The notes under the pieces are model-generated. The model saw only the letters and a list, made by a program, of their open reading frames with translations, did no database searches and was not told the DNA's origin. Position numbers and translations under genes: made by a program. A stretch of 48,151 nt of DNA. Origin: Deltaproteobacteria bacterium (GTDB lineage: Bacteria; Desulfobacterota; GWC2-55-46; UBA9637). Below, one piece after another: positions 22,638-47,894 of this stretch. How positions within the stretch are numbered: position 1 is the stretch's first letter; each line of letters starts with the position of its first letter. Location: NCBI GenBank assembly GCA_016200645.1, contig JACQEJ010000096.1, forward strand, positions 1 through 48,151. Direction: 5' to 3'.

Positions 22638-22714
22638 TGGTCGGGGCGGCGGGATTCGAACCCACGGCCACTTGCACCCCATGCAAGTGCGCTACCAGAC
22701 TGCGCTACGCCCCG
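22638..22714 (-). tRNA. tRNA-Pro (anticodon GGG)
   Basis: Cloverleaf folded by hand: CGGGGCG acceptor, GCGC D stem, CTTGC/GCAAG anticodon stem with loop ATGGGGT, GTGGG-TTCGAAT-CCCGC T arm, encoded CCA; 77 nt. Confidence 0.9.
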
Positions 22715-30570: not shown

Positions 30571-30646
30571 TGGTAGGCACGGGCGGTCTCGAACCGCCGA
30601 CCTCTACCGTGTCAAGGTAGCGCTCTAACCCCTGAGCTACGCGCCT
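30571..30646 (-). tRNA. tRNA-Val (anticodon GAC)
   Basis: Hand-folded cloverleaf: AGGCGCG acceptor, GCTC/GAGC D stem, CTACC-TTGACAC-GGTAG anticodon arm, GGCGG-TTCGAGA-CCGCC T arm, encoded CCA; 76 nt. Confidence 0.9.
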
Positions 30647-39119: not shown

Positions 39120-40073
39120 ATGGGCAGGCATCCTGCTTTTGATTCACAAAAAGTTATATGGGATTTAAGGCAGCCGCGGCAAACTATCGTTGAAATGGTC
39201 GGCAATACGCCGCTGGTTAAGATAAACAGGATTACCAAACACCTCCCGGAATCGGTAGAGATTTACGCAAAGGTTGAGGCGTATAATCCAGGCGGGTCTG
39301 TAAAAGACAGGGCTGCCAAGCGGATGATTGAGGATGCGGAAAAGAGCGGCAGGCTTACAAAGGATAAGATAATCCTTGATTCAACATCCGGCAACACCGG
39401 GATTGCATACGCATGGATCGGCGCGGTAAAGGGTTACGGCGTTGAGCTGGTGGTGCCTCAAAATGTGAGCGAAGAGAGGAAGAAGATACTCAGGGCATTC
39501 GGCGCAAAGGTGGTATTTTCAAATCCTCTGGAGGGTTCGGACGGCGCTATAAGGCTTGCATGGAAACTCTATGTAGACAATCCGGATAAATACTGCAAGC
39601 TTGACCAGTATAATAACCCATCCAACCCTCAGGCCCATTATGATACAACAGGCCCAGAAATCATAGAGCAGACGGACGGCAGAATCACCCATTTTGTGGC
39701 AAGCATTGGAACCAGCGGCACTATCATGGGCACGGGGAGGAGAATGAAGGAATATAATCCTGCCATACAGGTGATACAGGTGGAACCTGCAACCCCTCTC
39801 CACGGTCTGGAAGGATTAAAGCATATGGCTACCTCCATTGTCCCGGGCATATATCATCCGGAAAAATTGGACGGCAAGGTATCCGCGCCAACGGAAGAGT
39901 CGTATGACATGGCAAAGAGGCTTGCGCGGGAGGAAGGGCTTTTTGTGGGCCAGTCGTCCGGCGCCGCCATGTGGGGCGCCCTGGAGGCGGCAAAGAATCT
40001 GAAGGAGGGTCTTATCGTGGTTTTATTCCCCGACGGGGGAGACAGGTATCTTTCTACGAGGCTGTGGGAGTAA
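39120..40073 (+). CDS. cysM: Cysteine synthase, CysM-like PLP enzyme
   Basis: NPGGSVKDRAA (PLP lysine), STSGNTGIAYAW and GTSGTIMG motifs; 317 aa. Confidence 0.85.
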   Translation: MGRHPAFDSQKVIWDLRQPRQTIVEMVGNTPLVKINRITKHLPESVEIYAKVEAYNPGGSVKDRAAKRMIEDAEKSGRLTKDKIILDSTSGNTGIAYAWIGAVKGYGVELVVPQNVSEERKKILRAFGAKVVFSNPLEGSDGAIRLAWKLYVDNPDKYCKLDQYNNPSNPQAHYDTTGPEIIEQTDGRITHFVASIGTSGTIMGTGRRMKEYNPAIQVIQVEPATPLHGLEGLKHMATSIVPGIYHPEKLDGKVSAPTEESYDMAKRLAREEGLFVGQSSGAAMWGALEAAKNLKEGLIVVLFPDGGDRYLSTRLWE

Positions 40074-40160: not shown

Positions 40161-40622
40161 ATGCTTTCTTTTCCTCAAAATATTTACAACGAAATAATCA
40201 ACCATGCCAAAGAGACGTATCCCTACGAGGCGTGCGGCGCATTGGCGGGAAAACAAAAACAAGGGTCAGGGCGGGTGCCCTCTGGGCGCGGTCAAGGGTC
40301 AAGAACCGAAAAGGATGTTTTGAAATTTTATAGTATGGAGAATATCAACAAGGACAGGGCGAATGACCGGTATGAGATAAATCCTAAAGAATTATTGAAG
40401 ATTGAAAAAGAGGCAAAAGCAAACGGTCTGCAGGTAATTGGTTTCTATCATTCCCATCCCGATCACCCTGACAGGCCTTCGGCCTTGGACAAGGAAAGGG
40501 CATGGCCATTGTATTCGTATGTAATTATTGCCGTTCATAACGGAAGAGATGTTTCCGTAAAGTCCTGGACATTTGAAGATGAGAGAGAACCTTTTAGAGA
40601 AGAGGAGGTAAAAACAGTCTAA
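40161..40622 (+). CDS. mec: JAMM/MPN+ metallopeptidase (Mec-like)
   Basis: EACG..., HSHPDHPDRPSALD (JAMM HxHx7Sx2D motif). 153 aa, including a repeat-derived insertion. Confidence 0.8.
   Translation: MLSFPQNIYNEIINHAKETYPYEACGALAGKQKQGSGRVPSGRGQGSRTEKDVLKFYSMENINKDRANDRYEINPKELLKIEKEAKANGLQVIGFYHSHPDHPDRPSALDKERAWPLYSYVIIAVHNGRDVSVKSWTFEDEREPFREEEVKTV
40272..40291. repeat. Family P3 core 20-mer, in frame inside the JAMM gene
   Basis: cgggtgccctctgggcgcgg is the exact reverse complement of 30384-30403. It is flanked by GGTCAAG-type words. The insert encodes about QGSGRVPSGRGQGS. Confidence 0.9.
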
Positions 40623-40693: not shown

Positions 40694-41521
40694 TTGGCTA
40701 TGAACTTCACCGAAGAACAGATAGAGCGATACTCAAGACATATAATTCTTCCGGAGGTGGGGGGCAAAGGCCAGGCGGAGCTTCTTAAGTCAAAGGTCTT
40801 TGTGCTGGGCGCTGGCGGGCTTGGCTCGCCGGCGCTCTTGTATCTTGCCGCTGCGGGCGTGGGAACCATCGGCATAGCCGATGGCGACTGCGTTGATTTA
40901 TCTAACCTGCAAAGGCAGATAATCCATGATACGGAAAAGGTCGGCACGCACAAGGCCGTATCTGCAAAAAAGTCCATTGAGGCCCTGAATCCTGATGTCA
41001 AGGTTGTAACCTACAAGGAGAGGCTTAATACAGATAACATAAGAGGCATCATAAGAGATTACGATGTGCTTCTGGACGGAAGCGACAATTTTCCTACACG
41101 ATATTTGATGAACGATGCGGCGTTTTTTGAAAAAAAGACGCTGATATCAGGGAGTATGTTCAGGTTTGACGGGCAGGCGACCATATTCAAACCGCATGAA
41201 GGCCAGCCGTGCTATCGGTGCCTTTATCCGGAGCCGCCGCCAAAAGGCCTTGTGCCAAGCTGTCAGGAGGCGGGGGTTTTAGGGGCCCTGGCAGGTGTGG
41301 TTGGAGTCATACAGGCAGTGGAAACGATAAAAGAACTTTTGGGGATTGGCAACACACTGGCAGGCCATCTTCTTATTTTTGACGCCCTGGGCATGAACTT
41401 CAGAAAGGTCAAGGTGAGGAGAGACCCGGAATGCGCCTTGTGCAGCGAAAAAGCAATCATTAAAGAGCTTATTGCTTACGAAGAGGCGTGTGAGATACAA
41501 GCGGCGAAGTGTGGGGCCTAA
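40694..41521 (+). CDS. moeB: MoeB/ThiF-family E1-like adenylyltransferase
   Basis: RYSRHIILPEVG, LGAGGLGSP nucleotide loop, CYRC and CALC zinc pairs. 275 aa, no rhodanese domain. Confidence 0.85.
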   Translation: MAMNFTEEQIERYSRHIILPEVGGKGQAELLKSKVFVLGAGGLGSPALLYLAAAGVGTIGIADGDCVDLSNLQRQIIHDTEKVGTHKAVSAKKSIEALNPDVKVVTYKERLNTDNIRGIIRDYDVLLDGSDNFPTRYLMNDAAFFEKKTLISGSMFRFDGQATIFKPHEGQPCYRCLYPEPPPKGLVPSCQEAGVLGALAGVVGVIQAVETIKELLGIGNTLAGHLLIFDALGMNFRKVKVRRDPECALCSEKAIIKELIAYEEACEIQAAKCGA

Positions 41522-41641: not shown

Positions 41642-41652
41642 TTTTGATTTCT

Positions 41653-42891
41653 ATGAAACAAACAAAGACATACCTCCACAACCCCGGTTATTTGAAGATT
41701 GACCTTATGCTCAAAGGCATCAGGGTTGATAAAGAGGTTCTTAAAAAAGCAAACATGGATAAATGCCGCAATCTTTTTGATGTTGCGTGCGGTATAGATG
41801 TTATCCTGCCGCACAATACATGGGTAACAGTCCCGTATATTGAAGACTTTACCAAAGATTCGCCTTATGAGCTTATGGAAAGGGATGGAAGATTTTTTAT
41901 AACCCATGGCGATGAATCGGTTCAGGTATCAGTAGTTCCAACGCCGGAGTTCTATACATTGAAAACAACCACGGGCATTCAATTATCCAGGATAGGCCTT
42001 GTCCACGGCGGATATGTGGCGATAACACCCGCGACGCAGTGCGACTTCTTTAATAAGGCCATAGAATGCAGATATTGCGCGGGGAATCTTGATATCTATA
42101 GCAATAAAGGGAGGGTTTATAGCGTTGAAGATGTATTGGAGACCGTCGAGGCCGCGTATAAAGAAGGAAAGGCGGAGATTGTCTATATATCCATAGGTTT
42201 TTCAGATACCCCTGACGGCGGCATAGAGTTCTTGAAGCCGTATATACAGGCGATAAAAAAACACTTTAATACCCTTGTTGCCGTGGAAGCCCTCCCACCA
42301 AAGGAAAACAGATGGGTAGATGAAACTTACGCAGTAGGCGCTGATTCTGTCTTATATAACCTGGAGATATTCAATCCGAAATTATTTGATGAGATATGCC
42401 CCGGCAGGGCAACGCTTATTGGGAGGGAAAGGTATCTGGACGCCCTGCGATACGCAACAACCATATTCCCGAACGGCACCGTAGCATCCCATCTTATTGT
42501 CGGACTCGAACCGATAGAGTCAACCATGTCAGGCATAGATTATTTTACCAACATCGGTGTGGTGCCTATACTGCCTATATACAGGCCGTCCTTAGGGGCA
42601 AAACTTTCTCAATATAAGATGCCTGCCACTAAAGATATTGCCCCGCTGTATGGTCATCTCTACAGGGCGGTTACCGCAAATAAGATAAATACAACCTGGG
42701 TCAGGGATATAAGCATTGTGACAACGCCGCTGGAGGGAAGATTCTTTGTCGGCGACGAGGCCAGGATGAAGACATGGATGCAGAATTTTTATAAATCAAG
42801 GTTGGGATTAAAGGCAGCATGGAGTCTCGCAACCCTGCGAAGGAAGCTGAAGGTCAAGGTAGGGGAATCGTCAGCGCACCGGGACAAATAA
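41653..42891 (+). CDS. Radical-SAM-like TIM-barrel protein with non-canonical CX8CX2C motif and an N-terminal domain of unknown function
   Basis: CDFFNKAIECRYC (42040-42078). GADSVLYNLEIF and SHLIVGLEP resemble BioB/ThiH-type strands. ATG at 41653 is preferred over the TTG at 41644, which abuts the repeat. Confidence 0.6.
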   Translation: MKQTKTYLHNPGYLKIDLMLKGIRVDKEVLKKANMDKCRNLFDVACGIDVILPHNTWVTVPYIEDFTKDSPYELMERDGRFFITHGDESVQVSVVPTPEFYTLKTTTGIQLSRIGLVHGGYVAITPATQCDFFNKAIECRYCAGNLDIYSNKGRVYSVEDVLETVEAAYKEGKAEIVYISIGFSDTPDGGIEFLKPYIQAIKKHFNTLVAVEALPPKENRWVDETYAVGADSVLYNLEIFNPKLFDEICPGRATLIGRERYLDALRYATTIFPNGTVASHLIVGLEPIESTMSGIDYFTNIGVVPILPIYRPSLGAKLSQYKMPATKDIAPLYGHLYRAVTANKINTTWVRDISIVTTPLEGRFFVGDEARMKTWMQNFYKSRLGLKAAWSLATLRRKLKVKVGESSAHRDK

Positions 42892-42906: not shown

Positions 42907-43010
42907 CCCCGTTAGACCTAAAAGCAAGAGGCTTTGCTTCAATCGATTGGTACGGAGAACAGTTTAAAAGTGAAGTGGGCAGCAATTATTTTAAAGGAGG
43001 TCTAACGGGG
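42907..43010 (+). promoter_or_regulatory. Long-range 13-bp helix sequestering the RBS/start of the permease gene
   Basis: ccccgttagacct (42907-42919) is perfectly complementary to aggtctaacgggg (42998-43010). The latter overlaps the GGAGG SD and the first base of the GTG start. Confidence 0.45.
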
Positions 43011-44437
43011 TGAGAATAGAGATAGACCGGCGCCCCATCTGGCTCATCATTATCTTAAGAAGTTTTAGGCCTATATTTTTTCTGACCATAGGGCTCATCT
43101 TCTTTTACCTGATCAACCTTCCTACACCGGACGGCTTGACAATCCAGGGACAGCGGGCAATTGCTCTGTTTACCGTATGCCTCATTTTATGGGTTACCGG
43201 CATGCTGCCGCTTGCCATAACCAGTCTTCTGGCGATTGTAACAGTTCCTCTGCTGGGGATACTGGATAAGAAAGAGACCTATGCGCTGTTCGGCAATGAG
43301 GCGGTCTTTTTTATCTTAGGGGCATTTATACTTTCCGGCGCCGTGATGCATTCGGGGCTGTCCGGCCGCATAGCTCTGGCGATAATGAACAGATTTGGAG
43401 GCACCCCGAAGGGGCTGCTTGCTTCCATATTCCTCCTGGCTTCGGCTTTGTCATTTTTCATGTCAGAACATGCGGTAGCGGCTATGCTCTTTCCCATTGT
43501 GCTGGACATTGCAAAGGGTTTGAATCTGAGGCCCGGCAGATCAAATTATGCAAAGTCTCTTTTTCTTGCCCTCGCGTGGGGGTGTATTATCGGAGGCGTT
43601 GCGACATTTCTCGGAGGGGCGCGGGTTCCGCTTGCCGTCGGTATGCTGAAGGAGGCAACAGGCATAACCATTGATTTCCTGGAATATACCGTCATCGTGT
43701 TCCCGACTGTGGTGATGCTGCTCGTGATAGGTTATCTTGGGCTGACAAGATTTTTCCCCCCGGATATAGAAGACATGCATCTGGCAAAAACCGTATTTGA
43801 AAGAAAGATGAAAGAGATGGGAAAGATAGGATATCTGGAATATGCAGTAGGCGCTGTCATGGCGGCAACAATACTTTTCTGGCTGTTTTTCGGCAGAAGC
43901 CTGGGCATAGCGAATATAGCCATTGTCTCGGTGGTCGGGCTTTTCATATTAAAGCTGGTTAGATGGAAGGACATTGAGGAGTATGTGAACTGGGGCATAA
44001 TCCTGATGTACGGCGGCGCAATAACATTGGGCGCGGCAATGGAAAAGTCCGGGGCGGCGGCATGGATGGCCAATGCGGCAATCGGAAATGGCATAAGCAG
44101 CCCTCTTGTAGTTATAGCAATATTTTCTCTTTTGACAATTCTCTTAACGGAAGGCATGAGCAACGCCGCTGTCATAGCAATCCTGCTGCCCGTCGGCATT
44201 GGCATGGCCTCCCGATTCAATATGGAGCCGAGGCTTATTACCTATGCCATAGCAGTTCCGGCAGGACTGGCATTTTGTTTTCCAATGTCAACGCCTGCAA
44301 ATGCCATTGCTGTATCATCAGGTTACATAACGACAAAGGATATGGCAAAGGCAGGCATTGTCATGATGATTTTGGCATGGCTTGTATTTAATCTGACGGC
44401 GCGATTTTATTGGCCGATAATAGGCATCAGGCTATAG
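43010..44437 (+). CDS. DASS/SLC13-type anion permease (ArsB/NhaD superfamily), putative sulfate/anion symporter
   Basis: 475 aa, about 12 hydrophobic segments. GTG start 9 nt after GGAGG. The sulfate role is inferred only from neighbours. Confidence 0.75.
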   Translation: MRIEIDRRPIWLIIILRSFRPIFFLTIGLIFFYLINLPTPDGLTIQGQRAIALFTVCLILWVTGMLPLAITSLLAIVTVPLLGILDKKETYALFGNEAVFFILGAFILSGAVMHSGLSGRIALAIMNRFGGTPKGLLASIFLLASALSFFMSEHAVAAMLFPIVLDIAKGLNLRPGRSNYAKSLFLALAWGCIIGGVATFLGGARVPLAVGMLKEATGITIDFLEYTVIVFPTVVMLLVIGYLGLTRFFPPDIEDMHLAKTVFERKMKEMGKIGYLEYAVGAVMAATILFWLFFGRSLGIANIAIVSVVGLFILKLVRWKDIEEYVNWGIILMYGGAITLGAAMEKSGAAAWMANAAIGNGISSPLVVIAIFSLLTILLTEGMSNAAVIAILLPVGIGMASRFNMEPRLITYAIAVPAGLAFCFPMSTPANAIAVSSGYITTKDMAKAGIVMMILAWLVFNLTARFYWPIIGIRL

Positions 44438-44493
44438 GCAATAGGCGATGGGCAATAGGAAAACCCATAGCCTATAGCCCATTGCCAATAGCC
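44417..44493. repeat. Mirrored heptamer hairpin (GGCAATA / CCTATAG words), overlaps the permease stop
   Basis: Left arm ggctataggcaataggcgatgggcaatagg, right arm cccatagcctatagcccattgccaatagcc. Confidence 0.9.
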
Positions 44494-44505
44494 AATTCTT
44501 TTATT

Positions 44506-44970
44506 ATGAAAAACATACTTCTCATACTCTCAACCTCAAGAACCTCGCAGGATGCGATTGAGTATGCCGTGGGTCTCGCAAAAAAGGAGAAGGCAAAGCT
44601 TGTCGTCCTCTACATAATCGAGACCGAGCTTACCAATGAGGTCTTTGATAAATTTACCGACATTGGCTTTATCGGCGACAAACCGTCAACAGAGCTTACC
44701 GAGGCCATTATGCGGGAATACCGCCAGCGCGGCTACGAGGAGATGGGAAAGGTTCAGATAAGGGCAATGGAAGAAAATGTTGATTTCGACGCAGTTACAA
44801 CGCAGGGGGATTTTGTTGAAAAGGCCGTAGAGACAATTGAGCGGTATAAGATTGATACTGCCGTTGCGATTAAACGGAAGCGCTCCGCATTCTGGAAGTA
44901 TTTCTCAAAATCCATGGTTGATGAACTCATAGAGCAAGCGCCGTGCAAGGTGGAGGTGTTTGAGGAATAA
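44506..44970 (+). CDS. Universal stress protein family
   Basis: MKNILLILSTSRTSQDAIEYAVGLAKKEKAKLVVLYIIE. The ATG at 44506 is preferred because the longer ORF start (44410) lies in the repeat. Confidence 0.75.
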   Translation: MKNILLILSTSRTSQDAIEYAVGLAKKEKAKLVVLYIIETELTNEVFDKFTDIGFIGDKPSTELTEAIMREYRQRGYEEMGKVQIRAMEENVDFDAVTTQGDFVEKAVETIERYKIDTAVAIKRKRSAFWKYFSKSMVDELIEQAPCKVEVFEE

Positions 44971-45070: not shown

Positions 45071-45682
45071 ATGACCCAACAAAAAGCTACCAACATCAAA
45101 TGGCATCACGGAAAGATTACGAAAGAAGACAGGATAAAGCTGATGAAGCAGAAAGGAGTAACCATCTGGCTCACCGGTCTGTCCGGCTCAGGCAAATCAA
45201 CCATTGCGGTTGAACTTGAGCATGCCCTCCTGGAAAACGGTCATCAGGCGTATATACTGGATGGCGATAATATCCGCCACGGCCTGAATAAAAATCTCGG
45301 CTTTTCGCCGGAAAACCGCTCTGAAAATATACGGCGCATCGGCGAAGTGGCAAAGCTATTTACCGATGCAAATATCATTACTATAACAGCATTCATATCC
45401 CCATACAGACAGGACAGGGAAAATGCCAGGAAACTCCAGAAGGATGGTGAGTTTATAGAGATATATGTGAAGTGTCCGTTGGAAGTGTGCGAGCAGAGAG
45501 ATACGAAAGGGTTGTATAAAAAGGCGCGGGCTGGCGAAGTCAAAGAATTTACCGGCATATCAGCGCCGTATGAAGAGCCGTTAAATCCTGAAATAACCAT
45601 TGACACATCAAAGCTGTCTGTTGAGGAATCGACAAAGGAGATAATAGGCTATCTGGAGAAGAAGGGGTATGTGAAGTTTTAA
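45071..45682 (+). CDS. cysC: Adenylylsulfate (APS) kinase
   Basis: [15 protein letters not shown]-loop, [17 protein letters not shown] and FISPYR motifs; 203 aa. Confidence 0.95.
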
Positions 45683-45685
45683 GAC

Positions 45686-45755
45686 GGGTTAAGGTTGAGG
45701 TTAAGGTTAAGAAAAAATCTTTTACTCAACCTCAACCTTAACCTCAGCCTTTTTT
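45686..45755 (+). terminator. Mirrored hexamer hairpin (GGTTAA words) followed by a T-run; terminator-like
   Basis: Left arm gggttaaggttgaggttaaggttaag, right arm ctcaacctcaaccttaacctcagcc, then tttttt. Lies between cysC and cysH. Confidence 0.6.
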
Positions 45756-45759
45756 AATT

Positions 45760-46536
45760 ATGAAAATAGATGATATTACAAAGAACACACTTGACAAACT
45801 CAATGCCATGCCTGCTGAAGGGCTTATCACATGGGCATTTGAAAACTTTGGGGCAAGATGCGCCATCGGCACGAGTTTTCAGTTAACCGGCACGGTAATT
45901 GTAGACATAGCCGGCAGGCATTTTAAGAAATTCAGGGTGTTTACCATTGATACGCTTCGGCTCCATCCTGAAACATACGAGGCAATCAAGGCTTCGGAAA
46001 AAAAATATGGTTTGACTATTGAAAGATTTACGCCGAATGAGGGCACATTAAAGAGCATGATTGAAAGATTCGGCGAGTATCTCTTTTTCATGGATAAGGC
46101 AAAGCAGGAATACTGCTGCTTTGTGAGAAAGGTTGAGCCGAACAGGCGAGCGCTTAAAACCGTTGATGTCTGGATAACGGGTTTAAGAAAAGACCAGTCG
46201 GATTACAGAAAGACTGTGCCAAAGGCGTCTCTTATCGAAGAAGACGGAAGGAAGATTCTCAAGCTCGCTCCCCTGGCGGACTGGGGCATGGAAGAGATAT
46301 GGCGGCATATACGGGAGAACAATCTCCCCTATAACAAACTCTTTGACATGGATTACGACAGCATAGGCTGCGTCATATGCTCAACACCGCTGGTCAAGGG
46401 CGAACCGCCCCGCTCCGGCAGGTGGAGATGGTTCAGCAAGGTGGATGAAAAAAAGGAGTGCGGGATACATACAAATACAGGCAATAGGCAAGAGGCAATA
46501 GGCAATAGAAAATTAAAAAATCAAAAGTCAAAATGA
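45760..46536 (+). CDS. cysH: Phosphoadenosine/adenosine phosphosulfate reductase, Fe-S (APS-reductase-like) type
   Basis: CC pair (EYCCFVRKVEP), CxxC (GCVICS), SGRWRW and ECGIH motifs. The C-terminal 21 codons are repeat-encoded. Confidence 0.9.
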   Translation: MKIDDITKNTLDKLNAMPAEGLITWAFENFGARCAIGTSFQLTGTVIVDIAGRHFKKFRVFTIDTLRLHPETYEAIKASEKKYGLTIERFTPNEGTLKSMIERFGEYLFFMDKAKQEYCCFVRKVEPNRRALKTVDVWITGLRKDQSDYRKTVPKASLIEEDGRKILKLAPLADWGMEEIWRHIRENNLPYNKLFDMDYDSIGCVICSTPLVKGEPPRSGRWRWFSKVDEKKECGIHTNTGNRQEAIGNRKLKNQKSK

Positions 46537-46626
46537 CAAATTAAAATTTAAAAATAACATTCCTTAATTTTGATATTTGATTTTTCATCTTTGATTTTAC
46601 TTGCCTATAGCCCATAGCCTATCGCC
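46477..46626. repeat. Two-tier mirrored element (outer GGCAATA words, inner A/T-rich heptamers), then T-run and RBS of sat
   Basis: acaggcaataggcaagaggcaataggcaatag..aatcaaaagtcaaaatgacaaattaaaattt..ttaattttgatatttgatttttcatctttgatttt..cttgcctatagcccatagcctatcgcc. Confidence 0.9.
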
Positions 46627-46648
46627 ATTTTTTAAGGAGGCATAAAGA

Positions 46649-47809
46649 ATGGTAGGTTTAATCGAGCCGCATGGCGGCAAACTTGTCAACAGGATTCTGG
46701 AAGGAAAAGAAAGGGAAGATCTTGCGGAAAAGGCGCAAAAACTAAAAAAGGTGCATCTCAATGAGAGAGAGATCTCCGATATTGAGATGATCGCAATAGG
46801 CGCTTTCAGCCCGCTGGAAGGGTTCATGAAAAAGGATGACTACCACAGCGTCATGGACAATATGAAGCTGTCCGATGGCCTTCCATGGACAATACCGATA
46901 ACCTTATCGGTCACAAAGGATGAGGCAAAGAATCTCAAAGAAGGGGAAGAAGTAAGCCTCGTCAACAAGGAAGGCGAGATGCTGGCGGTTCTCCATATTG
47001 AAGAAAAATTCAGTCACGATAAAGAAAAAGAAGCTGTTCAGATCTACGGCACAAAGGATATGGCTCACCCCGGGGTGGCAAAGGTTTTTGAGATGGGCGA
47101 TACGCTTCTTGGAGGCAGTGTATCGGTCATACACAGGGTTAAGCAGGAAAACTTTTTAAAATATAGACTTGATCCAAAAGAAACCCGTCAGCTTTTTAAG
47201 GAAAAGGGATGGAAGAGGGTTGTCGGCTTTCAAACAAGAAACCCGATTCATAGGGCGCACGAATATATCCAGAAGTGCGCACTGGAGGTGGTAGACGGGC
47301 TGATGATTCATCCTATTGTCGGCGAAACAAAAGGAGACGATGTGCCTGCTGCTGTGCGTGTGAAGTGCTATGAGGTTTTGCTGGAAAATTATTATCCCAA
47401 AGACAGGACCGTGCTTGTTGTCAATCCTGCGGCCATGAGATACGCAGGCCCAAAAGAGGCGATATTCCATGCGCTCATAAGGAAAAACTACGGCTGCACC
47501 CACTTTATTGTCGGGAGAGACCATGCGGGCGTGGGCAACTACTACGGCACCTTTGATGCGCATTACATATTTGACGAGTTTGACCCTCTGGAGATCGGCA
47601 TAACACCGATGTTTTTCGACCACACCTTCTACTGTAAAAAATGCGAAGGCATGGCGTCGTATAAAAGCTGCCCGCACGATTCCAGCCACCATGTCACCCT
47701 TTCCGGCACAAAGGTAAGGGAGATGCTGCGGGCAGGAACGATGCCCCCGCACGAGTTTTCAAGGCCAGAAGTCGCAAAGGTTTTGATAGAGGCGATGAGG
47801 GCAACATAA
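46649..47809 (+). CDS. sat: Sulfate adenylyltransferase (ATP sulfurylase)
   Basis: [11 protein letters not shown] and GRDHAGVG motifs; 386 aa. Confidence 0.95.
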
Positions 47810-47894
47810 TGGCGGAGGGTGAGGGACTCGAACCCCCAAGGGCGTTAGCCCGCTGGTTTTCAAGACCAGTGACTTACCATTAGCCTAACCCTCC
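47810..47894 (-). tRNA. tRNA-Ser (anticodon UGA) with long variable arm
   Basis: Hand-folded: GGAGGGT acceptor, CTGGT-CTTGAAA-ACCAG anticodon arm, variable arm CGGGCTAACGCCCTT, GGGGG-TTCGAGT-CCCTC T arm, encoded CCA. 85 nt. Abuts the sat stop. Confidence 0.9.

Follow-up and report, generated by a model that had tools for sequence, protein, structure and literature searches.

Sulfate assimilation is regarded as fully mapped, and radical S-adenosylmethionine (SAM) proteins are normally read as enzymes. What, then, is a conserved protein of the radical SAM fold doing beside the transporter gene of a sulfur-assimilation cluster? This question is raised by a gene at positions 41653-42891 on the forward strand of a contig from a Deltaproteobacteria bacterium (JACQEJ010000096.1 in assembly GCA_016200645.1); we refer to the whole analyzed stretch of 48,151 nucleotides as the window. 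The original prediction, made from the sequence letters, had described the gene product as a radical-SAM-like protein with an unusual cysteine spacing and a novel N-terminal domain, and had suggested a sulfur-related radical reaction outside the standard pathway. We found that radical-SAM-fold (rSAM) proteins of this type are linked to a probable sulfate importer of the DASS family across at least two phyla and are physically fused to it in the cultured genera Mariprofundus and Ghiorsea. In two clades, strong constraint acts on their iron-sulfur (Fe-S)/SAM site; at least one nested clade, still found in the same genomic position, no longer has it. From this pattern in the genes, we tentatively read the window protein as an Fe-S/SAM-binding cytoplasmic accessory module of the importer with a regulatory or coupling role, a reading to which we would give slightly less than an even chance.

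A radical SAM fold with variant cysteine spacing

The open reading frame is free of stop codons over 412 codons. A TTG at 41644 offers an alternative start that would add three residues; homologues begin at the ATG at 41653 (MKxTKTYLHNPGYLK), from which we number all residues. The cluster motif had been placed at residues 133-145 in the original prediction, which is three too high because the count began at the TTG. The gene and its parts are as follows:

41653..42891, + strand: variant radical-SAM-fold protein, 412 amino acids, member of the DASS-linked subfamily of NF045502 (translation, PF04055, NF045502, AlphaFold2 model, Foldseek)
41653..42030, + strand: N-terminal alpha+beta domain, residues 1-126 (alignment, AlphaFold2 of the domain alone, Foldseek)
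42040..42078, + strand: cluster motif C130-X8-C139-R-Y141-C142 (CDFFNKAIECRYC), with an aromatic residue before the third cysteine (sequence check and alignments)
42175..42513, + strand: barrel core, comprising IVYISIGF (beta2), DGG 188-190, GADSVLYNLE (beta4), ICPGR 248-252, and SHLIVGLEP (beta5) (three-clade conservation, AlphaFold2 strands)
42835..42855, + strand: C-terminal basic motif LRRKLKV, residues 395-401 (consensus LRRxLRV), the signature of the DASS-linked subfamily (alignments, tree)

The CX8CX2C pattern reads exactly as had been claimed for nucleotides 42040-42078. It is present in exactly one copy in each of the best homologues (120/120; 54-82% identity), and C130, C139, Y141, and C142 do not vary among the 41 sequences that we aligned, so it is not a chance pattern. 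Six cysteines occur in the window protein in total, and the only conserved ones are these three and a fourth, C249, which lies within ICPGR. The residue before the third cysteine is invariably tyrosine (Y141) among close relatives and either tyrosine or phenylalanine across the wider family. The later segments cited as resembling those of known enzymes are all present: EIVYISIGF (residues 175-183), GADSVLYNLEIF (residues 229-240), and SHLIVGLEP (residues 279-287) coincide with the predicted barrel strands beta2, beta4, and beta5. We take the beta4 motif YNLE...PG and the beta5 motif IVGLE to resemble motifs of BioB and LipA.

The encoded protein has a radical SAM fold and belongs to NF045502, a family that is catalogued and functionally uncharacterized. 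Pfam PF04055 (Radical_SAM) matched residues 139-285 at 37.7 bits (gathering score 29.5), and NCBIfam NF045502 ("variant_rSAM") matched residues 10-335, corresponding to profile positions 3-350 of 357, at 208.3 bits (curated cut-off 125). TIGR04043, the MSMEG_0568 family of radical SAM proteins in Nit1C clusters, reached 114.5 bits over residues 57-347, short of its cut-off of 303.7. The NCBIfam models lipA (15.7 bits against 310) and LipS2 (28 bits against 270) remained below their cut-offs, and MqnC, CofH, and MqnE gave sub-threshold matches only. We then used AlphaFold2 (AF2) with the family alignment, obtaining a model with a predicted local distance difference test score (pLDDT) of 81 and a predicted template modeling score (pTM) of 0.82. 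Its best Foldseek neighbors in the PDB were all radical SAM barrels, namely HydE, HydG, ThiH, LipA, BioB, RlmN, and NifB (probability 1.00); against the barrels of HydE, HydG, ThiH, BioB, and LipA, E values ranged from 6e-8 to 1e-6 with a template modeling (TM) score of about 0.45 and 14-20% identity, the termini being uncovered. Sequence-based comparison did not reach as far: a profile search against PDB sequences returned noise only (transketolase at E 0.4), and hhalign of the family against one BioB sequence aligned the CxxC stretch alone (probability 15%). The three-cysteine loop with its variant spacing, the aromatic residue before the third cysteine, the PF04055 score, and the partial (beta/alpha) barrel are all features of radical SAM membership, and no well-characterized family claims the protein in either profile or structure comparison.

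The unusual spacing is thus real and conserved, but both it and the family are already known as catalogue entries; RadicalSAM.org lists CX8CX2C as a recognized variant (Megaclusters 4-6-1, -3, -5, and -6; PMC9477430). For the wider family, we performed a profile search of 1.8 billion representatives, which yielded 298 proteins at E < 1e-30. Among the best 150 of these 298, the first spacer was mostly X8, with some X9-X14 and few X3.

The claim of a novel N-terminal domain was borne out in part. K15, L18, L20, G22, Y72, and H118 are invariant in the alignment of this domain, and folded alone it reached an AF2 pLDDT of 83.6. Foldseek of the domain against the PDB found no match (best E 0.13, TM 0.27 or less), so these ~126 residues have no detectable relative among solved structures; as a sequence family, however, the domain is not new because it falls within the NF045502 model (residues 10-335). 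We also considered whether the domain might be a hidden ThiS-like beta-grasp carrier with a JAMM-cleavable GG at VHGG (residues 117-120). We rejected this because the second glycine is serine in most homologues (consensus VHGSY), because Foldseek finds no beta-grasp match, and because a separate ThiS-like carrier is encoded on another contig of the same genome, described below. At the other end of the protein, many members of the subfamily (e.g., L116, L112, L110, and P0017) carry a conserved tail after LRRxLRV, xVx(D/E)S(F/L)(D/E)SSxL-COOH, which may be a docking peptide. The tail of the window protein, VGESSAHRDK, is a degenerate version.

The DASS transporter as constant partner, and a clade without the cluster

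To characterize the genomic neighborhood, we compared 77 loci (L001-L077) from other genomes, all of them metagenome-assembled genomes (MAGs) of uncultured "Deltaproteobacteria"/Thermodesulfobacteriota, and found that the order cysM-JAMM-E1-rSAM-DASS-USP-(cysC)-cysH-sat is kept across them. In the close clade, the DASS gene lies directly downstream of the rSAM gene in 68 of 69 loci, with a median gap of about 25 nucleotides (nt), and the E1 gene lies directly upstream in 62 of 62; a universal stress protein (USP) gene comes after the transporter in most loci. L016 (JACRNL010000009.1) is the only close locus with ~1.4 kb of downstream sequence and no DASS match, and it ends at a contig edge. 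Unfused members are known from MAGs only, including Candidatus Binatia, and the related genomes are non-independent samples. Among the distant subfamily members examined, DASS was directly downstream in all, and an upstream E1 was not constant:

Other families of the phylum, including Candidatus Binatia, 38-49% identity: E1, NIL, or TusA upstream; DASS downstream
Zetaproteobacteria, 29-31% identity: Sir::TusA upstream; fused to DASS
Clade without the cluster cysteines (Cys-less clade), 35-37% identity: ThiS upstream; DASS downstream

The DASS transporter is therefore the constant genomic partner of these proteins, and the upstream neighbor varies. Adjacency to DASS is maintained from 81% to 38% identity and extends over several of the phylum's families as well as Zetaproteobacteria. 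Other NF045502 members (21-26% identity) were found in unrelated gene contexts. For example, L120:7334-18024 (G068:C14) encodes a pair of paralogous NF045502 prototypes (~430 and ~210 bits). Around them are genes for MetK (SAM synthetase), an SDR protein, two proteins resembling nitrogenase component 1 (PF00148), a porin, a binding protein of the NMT1/THI5-like type, and an MFS transporter, which is a different, likewise uncharacterized context of the variant radical SAM family.

In some lineages the two partners are a single protein. The representative search returned P0164, a protein of 881 amino acids in which a PF04055 radical SAM domain is followed by a complete DASS domain (PF00939), and a search with its rSAM part among long proteins returned at least 165 protein clusters of such rSAM::DASS fusions, each of ~880 amino acids. 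The named fusions are all from the iron-oxidizing Zetaproteobacteria, namely the cultured Mariprofundus ferrooxydans, M. erugo, M. micogutta, and Ghiorsea bivora, together with many MAGs; public annotation calls them merely "DASS family sodium-coupled anion symporter." The fused rSAM part passes the NF045502 cut-off (167-178 bits), has the spacing CX9CX2C, and is joined at the transporter N-terminus, which we presume to be cytoplasmic from VcINDY structures. In M. ferrooxydans PV-1 and G. bivora, the gene order is ThrC-like - ThiS - NIL - CysM - ThiF - Sir::TusA - rSAM::DASS - cysH - cysD - cysN. Our literature searches brought up no description of the rSAM-DASS module, of its fused form, or of the Cys-less clade, and no functional study on CysO/JAMM with radical SAM, on Nit1C with radical SAM, or on Mariprofundus DASS with radical SAM.

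In a maximum-likelihood tree, with the root inferred from the outgroup, the LRRxLRV-bearing, DASS-linked proteins form one clade (100/98) apart from other variant rSAM proteins. The window protein is placed in this clade and has both marks of the subfamily, a DASS gene downstream and the LRRxLRV motif, the latter being kept in the Zetaproteobacterial fusions and in the Cys-less clade. Several full-length relatives lack the cluster motif, and a seeded search with them gave about 25-27 clusters (P0161, P0270-P0292). These Cys-less proteins had no Pfam match and only a sub-threshold NF045502/TIGR04043 match over the N-terminal region. In the tree they are monophyletic (100/100), on a long stem, and nested within the DASS-linked clade. 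Aligned with the window clade and the Zetaproteobacterial fusions, they show a deletion of the entire cluster loop, the substitutions G182 to W, N236 to H, and E238 to G, and the loss of ICPGR, including C249, and of the beta5 GLE; the corresponding G182, N236, E238, C249-P-G, and G284-L-E are common to the window clade and the fusions. What the Cys-less clade retains is the N-terminal domain and residues K15, L18, G22, H118, G119, DGG 188-190, Y197, K202, E212, YAxGxDS, H280, P305, W349, P359/E361, and LRRxLRV.

Three Cys-less genes could be seen on contigs, and each stands in the order (PALP -) ThrC-like - NIL - CysM - JAB - ThiS - Cys-less gene - DASS - USP, with Sat following USP in one of the three (L131). 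Where the DNA of these loci was retrieved (n = 2), the start and stop codons of the gene overlap or directly adjoin those of its two neighbors. Partial or complete cysteine losses also occur in P0128, P0129, P0138, and P0180, scattered elsewhere in the DASS-linked clade. The expectation that the cysteine triad would be conserved among homologues thus holds for the window's own clade, where it is invariant, but not for all relatives. The presence of the Cys-less clade in the same slot suggests a transporter-linked role without a strict need for radical chemistry.

The host sulfur-assimilation cluster

The gene does lie between an E1 and a permease, as had been noted, and the sulfur-assimilation neighborhood around it is real and conserved across lineages. 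Its members in the window are as follows:

39120..40073, + strand: cysteine synthase of the CysM type, dependent on pyridoxal phosphate (PLP) (PF00291; TIGR01138 cysM at 386 bits, just under the cut-off of 394.2; TIGR01136 cysKM at 353.2, which passes)
40161..40622, + strand: JAMM/JAB metalloprotease, Mec-like (PF14464, 87 bits)
40694..41521, + strand: E1-like adenylyltransferase of the ThiF/MoeB type, 275 amino acids, no rhodanese domain (PF00899, 267 bits, residues 13-248)
43010..44437, + strand: DASS-family anion (probably sulfate) symporter (PF00939, 204 bits; TIGR00785, 257 bits)
44410..44970, + strand: USP gene, start codon uncertain (PF00582; synteny)
45071..47809, + strand: sulfate activation and reduction genes cysC (45071-45682), cysH (45760-46536), and sat (46649-47809) (Pfam and NCBIfam)

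The order in the window is cysM, JAMM/JAB, E1, rSAM, DASS, USP, cysC, cysH, and sat, all on the + strand, and the DASS gene starts 118 nt downstream of the rSAM gene. This DASS is the only strong DASS match genome-wide, and no SulP transporter was found in the genome (94% complete); it is the sole strong sulfate-transporter candidate that we found in this genome. The window also has three tRNA genes, all on the - strand, at 47813-47894, 30574-30646, and 22641-22714, one of them directly downstream of sat on the opposite strand.

The window (contig C113) holds one half of the cluster, and the other half is on contig C114 (L130:1021-4581; L078). C114 starts with a SAM riboswitch (RF00162, 98 bits, L130:1021-1136), after which come a ThrC-like PLP enzyme with an N-terminal zinc-ribbon-like segment, a sirohaem-type sulfite reductase (Sir) of 324 amino acids with a ferredoxin insert, TusA, a ThiS-family carrier of 93 amino acids with the C-terminus AGG-VN, and a NIL-domain protein. 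The presence of the JAMM protease is explained by this carrier, since a ThiS-like protein ending in AGG-VN needs trimming. Among the 77 loci of relatives, about 40-45 have the Sir-TusA-ThiS-NIL block directly upstream of the cluster. An Rfam scan of the window and upstream of cysM found no riboswitch; elsewhere, RF00162 (80-98 bits) stands ahead of the cluster in 9 loci (6/7 and 3/8 of those tested), including C114.

This type of cluster has been known since 2006, when Iyer, Burroughs, and Aravind described class 4e ThiS/MoaD-JAB-E1-SirA sulfur-assimilation neighborhoods (PMC1779556). The host cluster has in common with class 4e a ThiS-like carrier, JAB, a rhodanese-less E1, TusA/SirA, sulfite reductase, sat, cysC, and cysH (PMC1779556); this component set is complete in the genome, divided between the two contigs, and contiguous in most relatives. 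The class 4e description names ABC transporters, and neither a DASS nor a radical SAM protein (PMC1779556), and the rSAM-DASS(-USP) module is an addition to it. Judged by its gene content, the host cluster is a predicted cysteine/homocysteine-type sulfate assimilation system built on a ThiS-like carrier, and its combination of a ThiS/CysO-like carrier with CysM and ThrC-like PLP enzymes parallels known thiocarboxylate routes to cysteine and homocysteine.

The comparison of loci also brought out two variations in the cluster. First, the downstream block exists in two versions. Where cysC lies between USP and cysH, CysH is 61-81% identical to that of the window; in loci without an adjacent cysC, which are the majority (L001 is an exception), CysH is only 33-42% identical, and in some of them sat (~40% identical) and cysC are found further downstream. 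The two versions are probably variants of the phosphoadenosine phosphosulfate (PAPS) and adenosine phosphosulfate (APS) types of reductase. Second, several relatives carry a further CysM-like PLP paralogue (~40% identity with the window CysM; L007:6623-7501, L039:6844-7743, L110-L112, and L129), mostly directly beside the CysM orthologue, which is absent from the window.

Accessory module, enzyme, or relay

Given these contexts, the window protein probably acts at the transporter rather than inserting sulfur itself. As an accessory module, it would dock on the DASS sulfate importer from the cytoplasmic side. In the window clade, C130, C139, and C142 would hold a [4Fe-4S] cluster with SAM at the open iron, and this site would couple sulfate uptake to cellular SAM, Fe-S, or redox status, giving end-product control of sulfate entry parallel to the SAM riboswitch control of the operon in relatives. 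The protein would insert no sulfur into a metabolite. The scaffold and its partner binding would be the ancestral constant, and the Fe-S/SAM site a module discarded by some lineages; we infer that what stays constant is a protein-protein function at the transporter's cytoplasmic face, to which the Fe-S/SAM site of the window clade would add sensing or catalysis. We prefer a regulatory or coupling role because SAM is already the operon's signal, because the known pathway has no gap needing radical chemistry, because TusA already covers sulfur relay to the rhodanese-less E1, because the pseudoenzyme clade persists in the same slot, and because no strong sulfate-transporter candidate other than the neighboring DASS turned up in the genome. 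It is possible, though we are doubtful, that a radical SAM domain was recruited more specifically as a cytoplasmic Fe-S/SAM-sensing gate of a secondary-active sulfate importer, of which the Cys-less pseudoenzyme clade would keep only the docking. Such a gate, free-standing in uncultured Desulfobacterota and Binatia-type bacteria and fused in Zetaproteobacteria, would control sulfur entry post-translationally, in response to SAM as the end product or to Fe-S status.

Several points weigh against a role of this kind. The cysteine triad, the aromatic residue before the third cysteine, the barrel motifs, and C249 are invariant across two phyla, in the window clade as in the fusions of Zetaproteobacteria; such invariance looks like purifying selection on a working active site and would fit catalysis equally well. 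A JAB::rSAM fusion (P0135, 575 amino acids) lies inside the DASS-linked clade and, with the strict E1 adjacency in the close clade, would tie the rSAM protein to the carrier machinery too, although the fusion is a single cluster to which we give little weight. The rSAM::DASS fusion could also be understood if the protein were an enzyme that uses the imported substrate. Finally, we know of no radical SAM domain that serves as an allosteric sensor on a transporter.

Most of these points would also suit a genuine radical SAM enzyme that carries out an undescribed step of carrier-protein sulfur assimilation and sits beside or fused to the transporter for channeling; it could, for example, modify the ThiS/CysO carrier or a partner enzyme, or act on the imported anion or an early intermediate. 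The conserved active-site residues (with Y141) across two phyla, a PF04055 score above cut-off, and a fold closest to HydE, ThiH, LipA, and BioB all suit such an enzyme, as do the JAB::rSAM fusion and the E1 directly upstream in all close loci, and ATP-grasp::variant-rSAM fusions among more distant family members (P0265 and P0237) suggest that the wider family is catalytic. Against it, the thiocarboxylate route (CysO/CysM/Mec of M. tuberculosis, HcyS of Wolinella) is not known to contain a vacant step for which radical chemistry would be needed, and set against that route, the cluster inventory leaves none either. Moreover, orthologues in the same slot have lost both the cluster and the conserved barrel motifs, the upstream neighbor is not conserved but the DASS partner is, and there are no auxiliary-cluster cysteines able to act as a sulfur donor. 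The sulfur-related radical reaction of the original prediction thus stands as one option, and an unlikely one in our judgment, beside an unchanging DASS partner and a Cys-less clade in the same slot.

An Fe-S sulfur relay, to our mind improbable, would dispense with a role for SAM: hydrosulfide or persulfide bound at the open iron of a [4Fe-4S] cluster would be handed on to the adenylated carrier, as with TtuA, NcsA, or LarE. Three cysteine ligands would leave one such site open, C249 could carry a persulfide, and the E1 that adjoins the rSAM gene in the close clade has no rhodanese domain. However, the aromatic residue before the third cysteine and the BioB/LipA-like barrel motifs are conserved, and in known radical SAM enzymes such features contact SAM. 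A relay would also leave the DASS fusion unexplained, and the Cys-less clade still has the carrier genes. The relay position is moreover occupied, since TusA/SirA has been proposed as the rhodanese substitute for E1s without a rhodanese domain (PMC1779556) and the cluster itself encodes TusA. A hitch-hiking gene whose role lies outside sulfur and transport (e.g., cofactor biosynthesis in the BioB/ThiH/HydE/MqnC group), its linkage being operon history only, is very improbable: the weak sub-threshold NCBIfam matches to LipS2, MqnC, CofH, and MqnE would suit it, but the adjacency is kept over the whole identity range in several families and Zetaproteobacteria, the DASS fusion is widespread, and the DASS-linked members form one clade apart from variant rSAM proteins of other contexts. 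We also dropped the idea of a sulfite-reductase substitute, a small sirohaem-type Sir being encoded in the cluster.

Should the accessory module prove to be a sensor or gate, it would extend the known roles of the radical SAM fold and be its first use as an allosteric transporter subunit; should the protein prove to be an enzyme, thiocarboxylate-dependent cysteine and methionine synthesis would have an unrecognized step. The natural fusion and the Cys-less clade are ready experimental handles for either case.

Among known systems, the closest by sequence are the NF045502 prototypes, which score ~370-430 bits in other contexts (e.g., beside MetK and nitrogenase-like genes) against 208 for the window protein; in contrast to NF045502 at large, the window protein belongs to a separate clade with the C-terminal LRRxLRV and an obligate DASS neighbor. 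TIGR04043, the nearest named relative, is likewise an uncharacterized radical SAM family with a conserved multi-gene context (PMC1199592), but its nitrilase, GNAT, and AIRS-like neighbors are absent at the window locus, where sulfur-assimilation genes are found instead. Compared with HydE, HydG, ThiH, BioB, and LipA, the window protein has additional N- and C-terminal domains and the CX8 spacing, and unlike the sulfur insertases LipA and BioB, it has no conserved auxiliary-cluster cysteines. The nearest functional analogy is the NIL/C2 domain of MetN, which binds methionine and provides end-product sensing on an importer. The rSAM fold is unrelated to that domain, and regulation by the rSAM protein is a proposal here; the proposed logic is the same, in that a cytoplasmic module of an importer would sense the end product and throttle uptake.

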